The notes: generated by a model from the sequence alone, not told the origin. A DNA stretch of 48,883 bases from a virus (IMGVR_UViG_3300031616_000011:1-48883), one strand, 5' to 3'. Shown: positions 1,980 to 10,998, counted from the first letter of the stretch. A program made the numbers and translations.

Positions 1980-3489
1980 CTACTTGGCTCCCGTACTTCT
2001 GGATGAACCGCGCCCGCTGGGCGGCGAGTTCCTCCTTGACTGACCGACCGGAGCGCACCGTGTGCGAGTCCTCGGGCGGCGAGTCCCGGTGTTCGGGAGC
2101 GCCGGAAAGCGGGGGCAAGTCGCCCGGGTCGAAGGCCGGGAGAGTGCCGCCGCTGCGCAGTAGTTCCGTGATGCGGTCGAGCTGTTCGGTGATCTGCTCG
2201 GCGCGGATGCCGACGATCGACGCGGTCTCATAGGCGGGGAACGGGGTCGGCCCGTACTCCCGCAGCGTGCTTTCGGTGCGCCGGACCGTCGGCAGGTTCC
2301 CGCGGCGGTCGGCGCGGAAGCCGCCGCGCATCGGCATCGGGTCCGACCGGTCGAAACGGCCGGAGAACGAATAGGCGGACAGCGATCCCTCGCTGATTCG
2401 GTCGAGGATCCGGTCGACGTCCTCACCCTTGGAGTAGCGGGTGCGGGTGAACAGCCCGTTTCCGTCGGCTTTGATCTCCAGCGGGATGCCGATCGGGACC
2501 GAGTGCAGATCGGACGGTGTCCCGTGCAGGGTCATGCCGTGGTTGTAGAAGACGCCGACCCGCCACGAGCTGCGCCCGCCGGCCGGAGCGACCTTCTGCA
2601 GGATCCGGTCGAACGCCTTCCGGTCGATGACCTCGATGTAGTCGCCGTCCTGGTCGTGGATCGGCGTCGGCGTGTCGAAAACGGTCGCGTAGGCGTCGAC
2701 GGTGCGGCCGTCGCCGCCGGCCCGGATCGAGATGTCCGACAGCGCGAACGACCGCACGAACGGCAGCGGCGCGCCCACCTGGAGGTCTTCTTTCGTCGGC
2801 ATGTGAATTCCGTCCTCCGACCGGTGGCCGTCCATCTTGGCGTGCGTCGCGGGGTAATAGCCGAGCGCGGCGTGGTGGGCGAGGTTGCAGTAGCCTTTTG
2901 CGTCGCCGATGAACTTCGACAAGTGGGATACACAACGGTCGAAGTCACCAGGTGCGCCCCACGCGATTTTTGCGGCGCCCTCGCCGTGCACCCAGTACTG
3001 GTGGAGGCGTTCCGTGGCACCCTCGTGCAGCGTCTGAACACCGCGGACGGCGGGATCCGCGGAACGGTGTGGAAGTGCTTTCAGCGCCACTACCTGCGCG
3101 AAGAACGCCGGCGTGACGTGCCCATCGGCCTTCACGCCGAGCCGCGTCTGTAGCGCTTTGATCGACGAGGTGGTCAGCGGGCCGAGCTGGCCGTCTATCC
3201 TCAGCGGCTTGCCGTGGCTGTCGCTCAGGCCGAGTTTGTTCAGGGCCGTCTGCAACTGCTTGACGTTCGGGTCGCCGTGCGGCATCCCGTACCCGGCGCC
3301 CTTGTTCGTCTTCGGGTCGTAGGAGAGGGTGTGGTGCGGCGGGCCGGCGGGGGCCGTGTGTTGCGCCGCCGGGTGCGCTCCGGTGTGGCCGCCGGTCGGC
3401 TTCGCGCCACCCCCAGCGCTACCGAACTGGCCGCCCGTCGACGAGCCGGCGGCGACATGGGTCATGTTGAAGCGTTCGGCATCTGTCAC
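1972..3489 (-). CDS. Prohead (capsid maturation) protease fused to an N-terminal peptidoglycan-binding-like domain
   Basis: HK97/S78-type protease core (VDAYATVFDTPT, EVIDRKAF, VFYNHG, SAYSFSG). Upstream of it are a PG_binding_1-like repeat (VKQLQTALNKLGL..IDGQLGPLTTSSIKALQ) and a GEGAAKIAWGAPGDFDRCV module. GTG 3489 follows GGAGGAGG (ATG alternative at 3465). The track extension to 3606 overlaps portal and is Arg/Pro-rich. Confidence 0.85.
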   Translation of the reverse strand: MTDAERFNMTHVAAGSSTGGQFGSAGGGAKPTGGHTGAHPAAQHTAPAGPPHHTLSYDPKTNKGAGYGMPHGDPNVKQLQTALNKLGLSDSHGKPLRIDGQLGPLTTSSIKALQTRLGVKADGHVTPAFFAQVVALKALPHRSADPAVRGVQTLHEGATERLHQYWVHGEGAAKIAWGAPGDFDRCVSHLSKFIGDAKGYCNLAHHAALGYYPATHAKMDGHRSEDGIHMPTKEDLQVGAPLPFVRSFALSDISIRAGGDGRTVDAYATVFDTPTPIHDQDGDYIEVIDRKAFDRILQKVAPAGGRSSWRVGVFYNHGMTLHGTPSDLHSVPIGIPLEIKADGNGLFTRTRYSKGEDVDRILDRISEGSLSAYSFSGRFDRSDPMPMRGGFRADRRGNLPTVRRTESTLREYGPTPFPAYETASIVGIRAEQITEQLDRITELLRSGGTLPAFDPGDLPPLSGAPEHRDSPPEDSHTVRSGRSVKEELAAQRARFIQKYGSQVDA

Positions 3490-8561: not shown

Positions 8562-10145
8562 CTACCCGACGGGTGGGACGTTTTCCGCCAGCCATGGCCA
8601 GGTCGCGTTCCGACCGGCCTCGATCAGGGGCACCATCTTGAACGTCGCGTCGGTCAGGCCGCCCATCTCGACCCGGTTCGTCTTCCCGGCGTCGACCGCC
8701 CCGACCTTGTAGCCGCCGAGGTTGAAGCCGTACAGCGCCACGTTGCCCGGGACCGCGGTAGACACGTCGCCGGTCATGGTCTGCATGTCCGAGATCAGGA
8801 ACACCCGGTCGTGGCCCGACCACGTGCGCCGCAGCGAGCCCGCGATGTCGGTGCCGTGGCCGACCTCACCGGTGCGCTTCACGAACCGGTCGACTTCCTT
8901 CAGCACGCTGGCGCCCTTCGGCACGTCGTGGCGGAACACGCCGTCGGCGAAGCCGTGGACGTCCGCACCGCAGCGAGCGCCGAGCACCACGCCGAACACG
9001 GCCGCGGCCTTCGCCGGGGTCATCTTCGACTTCGCCGAGTAGGCCATGTTGGTCATGGACGCCGAGGTGTCGATGAGGACGAGGGTGCGGCCGTCGAGCC
9101 GCGGCACGTTGCCGAGCGCGGCGTTGAGCGCCTTGTCCAGGGCGTGGCCCCACCGCAGCGACGGAGCTGCCTCGTACGCCGCGAGGAACCGGTACGGGAA
9201 CTGGCGGGACTTCGCCACCTGCGCGGGGTCGGCCAGGCGGGCGGCCACCGTGTCCGCGACGTCGTCGGAGACGCCCGCCTCGTCGAAGTTCCGGAGGTTC
9301 CGCAGCAGCGCCATGTAGCCCATCGACGGGATCAGCGCAGCCCACAGCTTCGCCTTGTCGACCGTCGGGCCCGCCAGGGACAGCGCGTCCTCCCACGTCA
9401 TGCCCGCACGCTTGAGCGCGTCGGCGTTCAGCAGAGACTCCGGCTCCTCCTTGACCACGCCGCGGAGCCACGCGTTGAAGCTCACCATCGACAGTCCGGA
9501 CGGGATCGTGTCGCCGCGGCCGTGCCGCCGGTCCAGCGCGTAGCTGAACAGTTCGCCCTGCCACGGTTCCTTCGGTGACGGGTGGACGAGGTCGAGGACA
9601 TCGCCGAATCGGTAGCCCTTGCTCACCGTGTCGTACCGCAGGAGCGAATACTCCGTGTAGAGCCGCACCGCCGCGTCCGCGACACCGCGCTTGACCGGCT
9701 TCGGGATCGCCCGGCCGTAGCGGGACGTCCAGTAGGCGAGGGCCTCGCCGGGCTCGTCGGCGCGCTGGAGCACGCTGGCCACGATCGGACGGGCGCCGGG
9801 CACCTTCGCCGCAACCATCGCCTTCGCAGCCTCCAGCGCGCCGACCAGGGAGGCGGAACGCATGTTGCCGTCGCCGCGCAGCCAGCCGAGGAAACCGGCC
9901 GTCCAGTGCGGGTCGGCGACCGCGGTCTGCGCGACCAGCGACCGGTATCGGGCGTCGCGGTCGGTCGCGCCCTCATAGAACGTCTGCTCCCCGACCATGT
10001 TCGCGACCGCGAGGAGGAACAGCTCCGACTTGACCGTGCGGGCGTAGCCGGGCGCGCCCTCGTACGTTGAGCCGGTCGGCTGCGCTGCGGTCTCGATCGG
10101 ACCCTTGGCCACCACGCGGTGGTCGACGACGTTGAACTTGGTCAT
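8562..10145 (-). CDS. rsr: Ro60 orthologue (Rsr): TROVE domain plus vWA domain
   Basis: 527 aa from ATG 10145 (GAGGAG upstream). TROVE-like motifs FYEGATDRDARYRSLV and MGYMALLRNLRNF. The C-terminal vWA domain has MIDAS residues (LIDTSASM, GHGTD, ISDMQ). Y-RNA-like modules lie immediately upstream. Confidence 0.85.
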   Translation of the reverse strand: MTKFNVVDHRVVAKGPIETAAQPTGSTYEGAPGYARTVKSELFLLAVANMVGEQTFYEGATDRDARYRSLVAQTAVADPHWTAGFLGWLRGDGNMRSASLVGALEAAKAMVAAKVPGARPIVASVLQRADEPGEALAYWTSRYGRAIPKPVKRGVADAAVRLYTEYSLLRYDTVSKGYRFGDVLDLVHPSPKEPWQGELFSYALDRRHGRGDTIPSGLSMVSFNAWLRGVVKEEPESLLNADALKRAGMTWEDALSLAGPTVDKAKLWAALIPSMGYMALLRNLRNFDEAGVSDDVADTVAARLADPAQVAKSRQFPYRFLAAYEAAPSLRWGHALDKALNAALGNVPRLDGRTLVLIDTSASMTNMAYSAKSKMTPAKAAAVFGVVLGARCGADVHGFADGVFRHDVPKGASVLKEVDRFVKRTGEVGHGTDIAGSLRRTWSGHDRVFLISDMQTMTGDVSTAVPGNVALYGFNLGGYKVGAVDAGKTNRVEMGGLTDATFKMVPLIEAGRNATWPWLAENVPPVG

Positions 10146-10147
10146 GC

Positions 10148-10184
10148 GAAACGGGCTCCTCACGTGACGTGGGGAGCCCGTTTC
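10148..10184 (-). promoter_or_regulatory. 12-bp hairpin between the Y-RNA array and rsr; it sequesters the rsr Shine-Dalgarno
   Basis: Minus strand reads GAAACGGGCUCC-13 nt loop-GGAGCCCGUUUC followed by GCAUG. The GGAG of the 3' arm is the rsr SD. It could also act as a weak terminator or 3'-end former for the RNA array. Confidence 0.5.
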
Positions 10185-10190
10185 CAGAAA

Positions 10191-10337
10191 GCTGTGCCCG
10201 AGGTCAAGGCGGATCCGGTGACGTTTAGCGCTCTACCACTGAGCTACATCCCAGGTCTGACCCGGGACGACGGGATTCGAACCCGCGACCTCTCTATCCC
10301 AAATAGAAGTAACCGAGTCCTGCGCACCGGGCACAGC
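10191..10337 (-). ncRNA. yrlA: Y RNA, YrlA-like, with a complete circularly permuted tRNA-like domain (module 1)
   Basis: Terminal stem GCUGUGCCCG/CGGGCACAGC. Second helix GGACUCGGUUAC/GUCACCGGAUCC (10 of 12 pairs). T arm GCGGG-UUCGAAU-CCCGU. A 9-bp acceptor-like stem CGUCCCGGG/CCUGGGAUG is closed by a UCAGA loop. D arm GCUC-AGUGGUA-GAGC. Ends about 45 nt upstream of rsr on the same strand. Confidence 0.75.
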
Positions 10338-10351
10338 ATCTGAAGTTGTGA

Positions 10352-10481
10352 CTCCCCGAGATCAATTACAGGCTGACGGGATGCCACACGCCACGTGGCT
10401 GGCGAGCCGCGACCTTGCGGGAGCGGCTGCCTGGATTCGAACCAGATCCCAGAAGGAACCGTCGACCAGCGCACCGGGGAG
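10352..10481 (-). ncRNA. Y-RNA-like module 2 (T arm retained, divergent effector domain)
   Basis: Terminal stem CUCCCCG/CGGGGAG with the same flanking CGGUGCGC and UUGAUCUCGG strands as module 1. Inner helix GACGG/CCGUC. T arm UCUGG-UUCGAAU-CCAGG. Hairpin AGCCGC..CC-GCAA-GG..GCGGCU. Hairpin CGCCA-GCCACG-UGGCG. Confidence 0.6.
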
Positions 10482-10499
10482 GTGCATATCAAGTTGAGC

Positions 10500-10573
10500 C
10501 CCACCGAGATCAAAGCGCCTGCGGAACCGGTCAAAATCGCATTTGAAGTAACCGCGGGCTGCGCACCGATGGG
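10500..10573 (-). ncRNA. Y-RNA-like module 3 (minimal, no tRNA-like elements)
   Basis: Terminal stem CCCAUCG/CGGUGGG (one G-U) with the same CGGUGCGC .. CGGUUACUUC and UUGAUCUCGG strands. Only a short internal hairpin, CGGUU/GACCG. Confidence 0.5.
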
Positions 10574-10603
10574 AACGATCCTGACGCTAACCCACCCTGG
10601 ACC

Positions 10604-10744
10604 TCAGGAGCAAACACGTTTCGTGCCAACCGCCTTCTCCGGGTCCCAACCCGCATCGGCGAGCAGCTTCAGGGCTTCGCCGGAGACCCGGTAGCCCTTC
10701 CGTTCGCAAAGGCGATGGAAGCCGTACCCGTCGCGGAGCTCCAC
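10604..10744 (-). CDS. Possible small protein, 46 aa
   Basis: Below the track cutoff. GTG 10744 lies 2 nt after the upstream stop. High GC3. Translation: VELRDGYGFHRLCERKGYRVSGEALKLLADAGWDPEKAVGTKRVCS. The region could instead be the promoter leader for the RNA array. Confidence 0.35.
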   Translation of the reverse strand: MELRDGYGFHRLCERKGYRVSGEALKLLADAGWDPEKAVGTKRVCS

Positions 10745-10746
10745 CG

Positions 10747-10998
10747 TCAGCCCCCGATCCACAGCTCGACCGCACCGTGCGCATGGATGGCCGCGATCAG
10801 GTCGGCAGCGCCATCCACACCACAGTCGGCGAGCCCTTCGAGATACGGCACCATCGCTGGGCCCACCTCGACCTTGTTGCCGTGGATCGAGCCGTCATGG
10901 CCCCACAGGCGCGGGGCGATCTTCTTCTTCAGGTCGAAGTCGAGCGTGCGCTCCGGGTCAGGCTTCGGTACCGGGCACCAGTAGAGGCTGCTGCTCAC
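10747..10998 (-). CDS. Hypothetical protein, 83 aa
   Basis: GTG 10998 in a GTGA overlap with the upstream stop. The track N-terminus is an Arg/Gly shadow. Confidence 0.55.
   Translation of the reverse strand: MSSSLYWCPVPKPDPERTLDFDLKKKIAPRLWGHDGSIHGNKVEVGPAMVPYLEGLADCGVDGAADLIAAIHAHGAVELWIGG

Follow-up and report, generated by a model that had tools for sequence, protein, structure and literature searches.

A bacterial Y RNA is recognised by its place no more than a few kb from rsr, mostly on the rsr strand, and by its 5' and 3' ends, which pair into a stem with a conserved motif for Ro binding that reads GNCGAAN0-1G in bacteria and GGUCCGA in vertebrates. Chen et al. (2014, RNA 20:1715, PMC4201824) have shown that two such RNAs of Mycobacterium smegmatis, YrlA and the T arm-bearing YrlB, are encoded upstream of rsr, are bound by Rsr and are 'processed from a single precursor'. 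Phages carry similar loci: Ro60 with at least two Y-like RNAs immediately upstream has been reported in cluster C mycobacteriophages and in the Thermus phage phiLo (Yrl1 and Yrl2), and the Ro60 and Yrls of phiLo bind the host PNPase (PMC12135203). The bacterial and phage Ro60/Y RNA systems are nevertheless poorly understood, and YrlA's tRNA-like domain is still without a known partner. Here, we analysed a viral sequence of 48,883 nucleotides (nt), IMGVR_UViG_3300031616_000011 (the whole stretch of 48.9 kb is called the window), in which an array of three Y RNA modules lies on the minus strand, directly upstream of an rsr gene on the same strand. We propose that this is a polycistronic Y RNA array with one promoter, whose modules would be separated by endonucleolytic cleavage in the linkers and then trimmed; judging from sequence comparison, we give this reading a probability of about 0.6.

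Three Y RNA modules on one scaffold

Read 5' to 3' on the minus strand, the locus runs from a small open reading frame (ORF; end at 10604) through a -10-like element, modules 3, 2 and 1 and a hairpin to the rsr ATG at 10145, and all three modules lie 46-428 nt upstream of this start codon. The sequence features put forward in a preliminary description of this DNA were all found in their places on this strand. The modules, their parts and the linkers are:

10573..10500, minus strand: module 3, short Y RNA of 74 nt, with P1 CCCAUCGG/UCGGUGGG, the boxes GGUGCGC and UUGAUCUC, P2, and an apical loop with GGUUACUUC
10499..10482, minus strand: linker 3->2, GCUCAACUUGAUAUGCAC, 18 nt, with the proposed cleavage site CAA|CUU
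10481..10352, minus strand: module 2, mid-type Y RNA of 130 nt, with P1 CUCCCCGG/UCGGGGAG, P2, GGUUCCUUC, a T arm and two hairpins
10446..10430, minus strand: T arm of module 2, from the fold and the relatives
10428..10405, minus strand: acceptor-like hairpin of module 2, AGCCGC-UC-CC-GCAA-GG-UC-GCGGCU, with a GCAA loop
10404..10389, minus strand: CGCCA/UGGCG complementarity of module 2, which can be drawn
10399..10383, minus strand: small D-like hairpin of module 2, GCCACG-UGGCG-UGUGGC, 6 bp with a GG loop
10351..10338, minus strand: linker 2->1, UCACAACUUCAGAU, 14 nt, with CAA|CUU
10337..10191, minus strand: module 1, full YrlA-type Y RNA with a T arm, a 7-bp acceptor-like stem-loop and a canonical D arm; YrlA-like by a permissive Rfam scan

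The three modules share two boxes next to the closing stem P1. The 5' box GGUGCGC follows the P1 strand and starts at 10567 in module 3, 10475 in module 2 and 10328 in module 1; the 3' box UUGAYCUCGG starts at 10513, 10365 and 10207, with the complementary P1 strand next to it. On the minus strand of the window, UUGAYCUCGG matches only within the three modules, and the plus strand has one match. Each module also carries GGUUACUUC (GGUUCCUUC in module 2) after P2, at 10545..10553, 10452..10460 and 10306..10314 on the minus strand. The T loop GGUUCGAAUCC is restricted to modules 2 and 1, and its copy in module 2 (10443..10433) is perfect. Module 3 has no tRNA-like domain, with neither a T nor a D arm.

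In single-sequence folds, every module was closed by its own terminal stem. However, the z-scores of these folds against shuffles were modest (-2.2, -2.2 and -1.3), so that the modules are supported by their relatives rather than by the folds of single sequences.

Relatives were retrieved through the Rsr protein, which gave 80 viral loci from IMG/VR with up to 71% identity; a second set, obtained by alignment, consisted of the 80 closest actinomycete genome loci. Related loci are labelled by L-numbers (L001 and so on). The closest genome loci were those of Micromonosporaceae (67-68% identity), followed by Actinomadura, Lentzea, Streptosporangiaceae, Nocardiopsis and Streptomyces. Modules were parsed by the two boxes together with a complementarity check of the flanking 8 nt. 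Arrays of two to seven modules were found in about 45 viral loci, and among the 80 genome loci 11 had one module, 32 had two, 19 had three and 10 had four. More than 100 related loci, viral and actinomycete, share this architecture of two to seven modules.

In the usual layout, a short module (68-77 nt) is farthest from rsr, mid-type modules lie between, and a full YrlA-type module with T and D arms adjoins rsr. The layout of the window (short, T-arm-only, full) is also present in L001 and L002 and, with extra modules, in L004, L023, L026, L033 and L037. Cultured phages have such arrays as well, namely the Streptomyces phages pSt2308 (four modules) and Quantum (three), the Gordonia phage VanLee (four) and the Mycobacterium phage Yucca (three), where they sit in unannotated gaps upstream of 'Ro-like RNA binding protein' genes. 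The largest array that we observed, with seven modules, about 970 nt upstream of rsr, was that of IMGVR_UViG_3300036794_000053 (L015).

The stems were conserved by compensatory change. Among 37 distinct short modules, five of the six closing P1 pairs showed double compensatory changes, and GGUGCG, ACUUC and GAUCUC were invariant. For 17 mid-type modules, the RNAalifold consensus contained both P1 and P2, the latter with many compensatory pairs, together with the T arm, the acceptor-like hairpin and a further small hairpin around a UGG loop. The MAFFT alignment of the module 2 homologues and the RNAalifold columns of P2 and of the D-like hairpin were too gappy for column covariation; we therefore compared, without an alignment, the duplex energy of the 5' P2 strand of each module with its own 3' strand and with the 3' strands of other modules, and used per-sequence folds in addition. 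The own-strand duplex was the better one in 74 of 77 short modules (p = 5e-14) and in 158 of 167 long modules (p = 2e-27). When the two 5' motifs were sought at a fixed spacing, zero matches were obtained, because the spacing varies by 1 nt. P1 and P2 thus covary across the relatives, and by this comparison of sequences modules 2 and 3 are real structured RNAs on the scaffold of module 1, as had been claimed.

Next to P1, the modules of the window have the box GGUGCGCAG or GGUGCGCUG, where many relatives have GGUGCGAAG. This box is one base off GGUCCGA and is not an exact GNCGAA; in Yucca, GGCCGAAGG at the same position is an exact match. The GGUUACUUC-type motif was invariant over all lineages examined, including pSt2308, VanLee and Quantum, in which the P1-adjacent boxes are different, and the Rfam YrlA model aligns GUUACUUC to the position of GGCGAAUGC (GNCGAA). 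Both the P1-adjacent box and the GGUUACUUC motif after P2 are candidate contacts of Rsr, and the linker core AACUUCA is similar to the latter.

Module 2 had been described as keeping a perfect T loop while a GCAA-tetraloop hairpin and a CGCCA/UGGCG hairpin replaced its acceptor and D arms. The T loop and the GCAA hairpin are present, but the idea of replacement is not supported: the GCAA hairpin stands at the position of the closed acceptor-like stem of YrlA. The GNRA loop of this hairpin is kept only in the nearest relative (GCGA in L001), and distant relatives have other loops. The CGCCA/UGGCG pairing was disfavoured by the relatives, which point instead to the small GG-loop, D-like hairpin. 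In the window, the two hairpins overlap and are isoenergetic (-6.9 against -6.8 kcal/mol). In L023, CGCCA/UGGCG is broken and GCCACG/UGUGGC is intact; the D-like stem of L001 is changed with compensation (GCCGCA/UGCGGU); and L033 and L037 lack CGCCA and have CCCCC-GCUGGCA-UGGGGG instead. A GG in a 4-9-nt loop of the second hairpin was found in 14 of 37 mid-type modules, compared with 1.5 in shuffles (maximum 6). The crystal structure of S. Typhimurium YrlA (bioRxiv 10.1101/312249) has shown that the T loop docks on two guanines of the D loop and that the acceptor-like stem is closed and of variable length. From the GG-loop hairpin and this docking we infer that module 2 keeps a mimic of the tRNA elbow with a non-canonical D arm, and its head would be a variant tRNA-like domain rather than a stripped one.

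The acceptor-like stem of module 1 can form 7 bp (GUCCCGG/CUGGGAU). Chen et al. gave a 7-bp acceptor-like stem as the reason for the cleavage of M. smegmatis YrlA by RNase P and for its CCA addition (PMC4201824), and by analogy module 1 might likewise be split into two halves.

The Rfam scan of the window gave no match at the gathering threshold, and ARAGORN found no tRNA in it. In a permissive scan, module 1 matched YrlA (RF02553) at 10316..10212 with 37.7 bits (E = 1.2e-6), against a gathering score of 69, and modules 2 and 3 had no match to RF02553 even at E <= 10. A mascRNA-menRNA match on module 2 (E = 0.81) was discarded, as it reflected T-arm resemblance only. A blastn search against phage genomes matched the tRNA-like core of module 1 alone and gave no relative for the array as a whole.

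Conserved linkers and a candidate transcription unit

The two linkers of the window share CAACUU-N-A-N-AUGC. The 13-mer CAACTTNANATGC (CAACUUNANAUGC) has two exact matches in the 48.9 kb, one in each linker, where 0.10 would be expected at one mismatch or fewer. We collected 119 distinct linkers (median 17 nt) from the related loci and found CAACU in 65 of them, whereas shuffles gave a mean of 3.2 and a maximum of 10; the rate was 30.9 per kb in linkers and 0.70 per kb in flanking DNA, a 44-fold difference. Anchored at CAAC, the consensus was (C)ACAACUUCA-N-A-N-G, with A at about 90% at positions +7 and +9. This is almost the motif that the preliminary description had read from the two linkers of the window, and its expectation of spacer conservation was upheld in the relatives.

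The motif lies 14-15 nt from the downstream stem (range 9-21) and 1-28 nt from the upstream stem. AACUUGA or AACUUCA occurs in the linkers of the low-GC pSt2308, of Quantum and of VanLee, despite their differing boxes. The GAUAUGCAC flavour of the motif is kept in the short->mid linker of L001, L002, L008, L074, L007 and L026. Because such position-specific flavours persist at 59-70% Rsr identity, the conservation of the linkers is selective and not residual. A small ORF in the linkers was rejected as an explanation, since AUG is only partly conserved.

Zhou et al. (2023, PMC10641625) have shown that mycobacterial RNase E cuts single-stranded RNA at RN|CNU, with C at +1 in more than 85-90% of sites, and an RNase E site has been mapped in the 16S-23S rRNA spacer of mycobacteria (PMC10641625). 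RNCNU was present in 81 of the 119 linkers (shuffle mean 42, maximum 59). Both window linkers contain AA|CUU, and a second linker class fits RN|CNU as A-G|C-A-U. The linker core fits this preference, which makes ACAA|CUU a candidate RNase E site. The mean predicted unpaired probability was 0.48 in linkers, 0.17 in P1 stems and 0.36 in whole modules, and the AAC core was predicted to be the most open part of the window linkers. We rejected RNase P or RNase Z at the module borders, where there is no acceptor-type end, and RNase III, because P1 and P2 are short helices with bulges, and cleavage in them would destroy the stem that binds Ro.

Two further elements would bound the transcription unit:

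10584..10613, minus strand: candidate promoter of the array, with -35-like TTGCTC (10613..10608), an 18-nt spacer and -10-like TAGCGT (10589..10584)
10148..10184, minus strand: hairpin between module 1 and the rsr ATG, 16 bp, -29 kcal/mol, with a GAGGAG Shine-Dalgarno sequence in its 3' arm

The end of TAGCGT is 10 nt from the stem of module 3. A strict scan of 10050..10850 for sigma-70 promoters and intrinsic terminators found no promoter-like and no terminator-like sites, and the promoter of the window is therefore called a candidate. In place of the strict scan, we used a looser actinobacterial test over the relatives: TANNNT starting 10-16 nt before the stem of the first module was present in 22 of 39 distinct leaders and in 1 of 61 linkers. 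L003 has a textbook promoter, TTGACA-N16-TACAGT, just before its first module. In 84 of 90 distinct trailers the sequence before rsr folds at -10 kcal/mol or below, the Shine-Dalgarno sequence is in the 3' arm in 83 of 88, and a U-run often comes after the hairpin and reaches up to the start codon. Judging from these predicted folds, the hairpin of the window probably marks the 3' boundary of the array, as a terminator or as an occluder of the ribosome-binding site. A combined terminator and translational occluder would uncouple the output of Y RNAs from that of Rsr.

With a promoter-like element before it and a trailer hairpin behind it, the array looks like a single transcription unit. Prediction gives tandem Y RNAs behind one promoter with no internal promoter or terminator. 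The single primary transcript suggested by the preliminary description is thus plausible, given the distribution of TANNNT, the empty scan and the M. smegmatis precedent. In the proposed scheme, one transcript would start at a single promoter upstream of module 3 and would contain three Ro (Rsr)-binding RNAs, namely a short hairpin, a mid-type RNA with a non-canonical tRNA-like domain and a full YrlA. It would end at the hairpin that occludes the rsr ribosome-binding site, or read through it. An endonuclease would separate the modules in the conserved linkers, most likely RNase E at ACAA|CUU, and exonucleases would trim the ends to the P1 stem, which Rsr would protect. The mature RNAs would then be three adaptors for the phage Rsr, with a common Rsr-binding scaffold and different effector-binding heads.

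What the sequences show is a set of modules with covarying stems, a conserved linker motif, one promoter-like element per array and the conservation of each module class. Several points weigh against the scheme. Co-transcription and linker cleavage at this locus are inferred from sequence, and so are the identity of the nuclease, the binding of Rsr and the distinct partners. About 40% of linkers lack CAAC, and one subclass is CACAGCAUCGGGG; many of the CAAC-less linkers are degenerate versions (CGACUUCAGAG, UAACUUCAGAG). Linker accessibility is only moderately above that of P1, and in the full-length fold the 2->1 linker of the window is mostly paired. No module in the window or in 18 related loci reaches the YrlA threshold, which leaves these loci unannotated or mis-annotated. 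The specificity of RNase E was established in mycobacteria and may not carry over to the likely host, which would be of Micromonosporaceae type. The linkers also exceed RN|CNU in information content, with A at +7 and at +9 and with the kept GAUAUGCAC, and the reader may be more specific than RNase E. Given this excess of information and a cleavage preference taken from mycobacteria, the identity of the nuclease is the weakest step. In addition, CACAACUUCAUGCA is found 14 nt before the first module in L018, L021, L028, L032, L034, L035 and L038, where it starts at about the expected transcription start, past the TANNNT -10 element; a pure separator role does not require it there. Either it is what is left of an upstream module that was lost, or the motif is part of the unit downstream of it.

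The motif might instead be a retained single-stranded extension or protein-binding element, such as a 5' tail of the downstream module, and its reader might be the same factor that reads the invariant internal GUUACUUC. The fixed distance to the downstream stem with a variable offset from the upstream stem, the information content above RN|CNU, the similarity of the core AACUUCA to GUUACUUC in every module and the seven leader cases all fit this explanation. However, the linkers without a motif do not fit, most first modules start a few nt from the predicted transcription start without such a tail, and the seven leader cases are closely related and probably reflect a single evolutionary event. 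The modules would also still need separation if they are individual Y RNAs, as in M. smegmatis, and we consider a purely retained element unlikely. Slightly less likely again is an array that stays one RNA, either as a multivalent scaffold to which several Rsr rings would bind or as a structured 5' leader that would let Rsr act back on its own mRNA. This would suit an array that abuts rsr, with a conserved hairpin that occludes the rsr Shine-Dalgarno sequence and, in the window, no U-run terminator predicted between module 1 and rsr; the Ro60 of the Thermus phage is also found in higher-order complexes with Y-like RNAs (PMC12135203). Yet in M. smegmatis one precursor gives rise to YrlA and YrlB as discrete RNAs, which accumulate bound to Rsr, and processing predicts just such a conserved single-stranded motif at the junctions. 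In many relatives, moreover, the hairpin with its U-run just before the start codon looks like a terminator that would separate the array from rsr.

Could each module have its own promoter, with UUGAUC of the 3' box as the -35 element and the -10 element in the linker? For the two linkers of the window, a TTGATC does lie 17 nt upstream of the hexamer (GATATG or CAGATG), and many actinobacterial promoters match the consensus weakly. But TANNNT at promoter distance is frequent in leaders and rare in linkers, the putative -10 hexamers have no conserved final T, the sigma-70 scan was empty, and ACAACU, the best-conserved part of the linkers, would lie in the promoter spacer and outside the hexamers, all of which makes such promoters improbable. 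The idea of a duplication-and-decay series, raised in the preliminary description, is the least credible and is largely refuted. It holds that module 1 was duplicated, that modules 2 and 3 are its decaying copies and that the likeness of the spacers is left from duplication; the three modules and two linkers do share sequence within the window, and the module number varies from one to seven between loci, so that duplication and loss occur. However, short and mid-type modules are conserved over loci whose Rsr is only 45-70% identical, with compensatory changes in their stems and invariant boxes. P1 is specific to class and position, being GYGCCC in the rsr-proximal module of most arrays and mostly CCUCCC in short modules. 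The closest homologues of module 2 of the window are module 2 of L001 and L002 and module 4 of L023, and it is nearer to L001 module 2 and L023 module 4 than to module 1 of its own array. The short, mid-type and full classes, each conserved, position-specific and with P1 sequences of its own, are therefore not decaying copies.

Beyond a processed polycistronic transcript, a more speculative and, in our view, doubtful proposal is that the linker (C)ACAACUUCA-N-A-N-G is a dedicated module-boundary signal, read by a specific factor and not by general RNase E. The Y RNA arrays of actinomycetes and actinophages would then be programmable operons of two to seven interchangeable adaptors, which phages would use to redirect host enzymes of RNA decay or tRNA handling. 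If so, each adaptor would combine the one Rsr-binding scaffold with a head that is a hairpin, a permuted tRNA-like domain or a tRNA-like domain of normal order, as in L026.

Gene context and individual relatives

The gene downstream of the array is as follows:

8562..10145, minus strand: rsr, Ro60/TROVE protein gene, 527 amino acids (aa); Pfam TROVE, E = 4.5e-19; PHROG 850 RNA-binding protein, E = 1.8e-48

The TROVE domain and the match to PHROG 850 identify the product as an Rsr/Ro60 orthologue, and its annotated relatives are named 'Ro-like RNA binding protein'. It is the presumed partner of all three modules. The genes for the large terminase, portal, protease and major head protein come after rsr on the same strand, which indicates that the window is a phage or prophage genome. 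Its G+C content is 69%. Two ORFs of 96 and 99 aa, 10244..10534 on the minus strand and 10395..10694 on the plus strand, overlap the RNA array. They are almost certainly not genes, although gene callers could pick them at this G+C content, and we rejected them as an explanation because they merely overlap the array.

Some of the relatives deserve separate mention. In L026, the module at 2472..2612 has a tRNA-like insert in the normal D-anticodon-T order, not in the permuted T-acceptor-D order of YrlA. Rfam matched this insert as tRNA at 2516..2580 with 36.4 bits, and ARAGORN made no call. The insert suggests that the Y scaffold can host different cargo.

In VanLee, the annotated tRNA-Arg(tct) (L162 904..975; NC_073474.1 65454..65525) is the 5' half of a YrlA-type module, and ARAGORN reproduces the call. 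It spans the P1 strand, GCUUACUUC, a small stem that is read as the anticodon arm, and the T arm; the D arm and the 3' strand of P1 come downstream of it, and the tRNA call is probably a mis-annotation. Yucca (L164 2385..2740; KX721255.1) has a short, a full YrlA and a short module upstream of its Ro gene, with the boxes GGCCGA(A/G) and CCAUGUCU. Its hypothetical coding sequence SEA_YUCCA_231 (2342..2578) overlaps two of these Y-like modules and is probably spurious.

Comparison with described systems

The YrlA-type head is familiar from RF02553 and the S. Typhimurium structure, with a permuted T arm, a closed variable acceptor-like stem and a D arm on a stem in which the 5' and 3' ends pair; in module 2, the small hairpin keeps the GG loop. 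The difference is that the GNCGAA box is replaced by GGUGCG(C/A), that module 1 stays below the Rfam threshold and that modules 2 and 3 have no match. Module 3, a P1-P2 hairpin with the loop UUACUUC, resembles the short hairpin Y RNAs (S. Typhimurium YrlB, D. radiodurans Yrn2 and M. smegmatis YrlB) in architecture only. The phage pairs likewise have Ro60 with Y-like RNAs upstream, and Yucca has its modules in the order short-full-short. They differ in their boxes, which are GGCCGA/CCAUGUCU in Yucca and a CGAA motif in phiLo, and processing and linkers are outside those reports. As in tRNA and rRNA operons, structured stable RNAs would be joined by short single-stranded spacers with an endonuclease site, but here the units are Y RNAs; their tRNA-like domain is internal and permuted, and hence the module borders lack determinants of RNase P and RNase Z.

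Multiple Y RNAs by rsr, a tRNA-like and a reduced Y RNA in one locus, actinobacterial co-transcription and processing, and phage Ro60 with Y RNAs are all known from published work. In the literature searched, the breadth of two to seven modules in more than 100 loci, the position-specific classes, the linker motif with its fit to RN|CNU and the hairpin that occludes the Shine-Dalgarno sequence appear to be undescribed. Actinomycetes and their phages routinely encode arrays of two to seven distinct Y RNAs on one scaffold, which are invisible to Rfam-based annotation and are sometimes mis-called as tRNAs or hypothetical proteins. The outcome is a testable model of Y RNA biogenesis and a catalogue of natural head variants for finding effectors, and experiments are feasible with the cultured Streptomyces phages Quantum and pSt2308, the Gordonia phage VanLee and the cluster C mycobacteriophages.

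The closest system is that of M. smegmatis. In both loci at least two Y RNAs directly precede rsr on its own strand, one of them full and one reduced with a T arm, and both loci belong with hosts of the phylum Actinomycetota. The window differs in having three modules (up to seven in its relatives) and in being phage-borne, and its full YrlA adjoins rsr, a place that is taken in M. smegmatis by YrlB, with YrlA on the far side of it. The main text of the M. smegmatis paper (PMC4201824) does not mention a linker motif. Given the single-precursor precedent there, the array of the window is a case of a known system, and the linker motif is its new detail.

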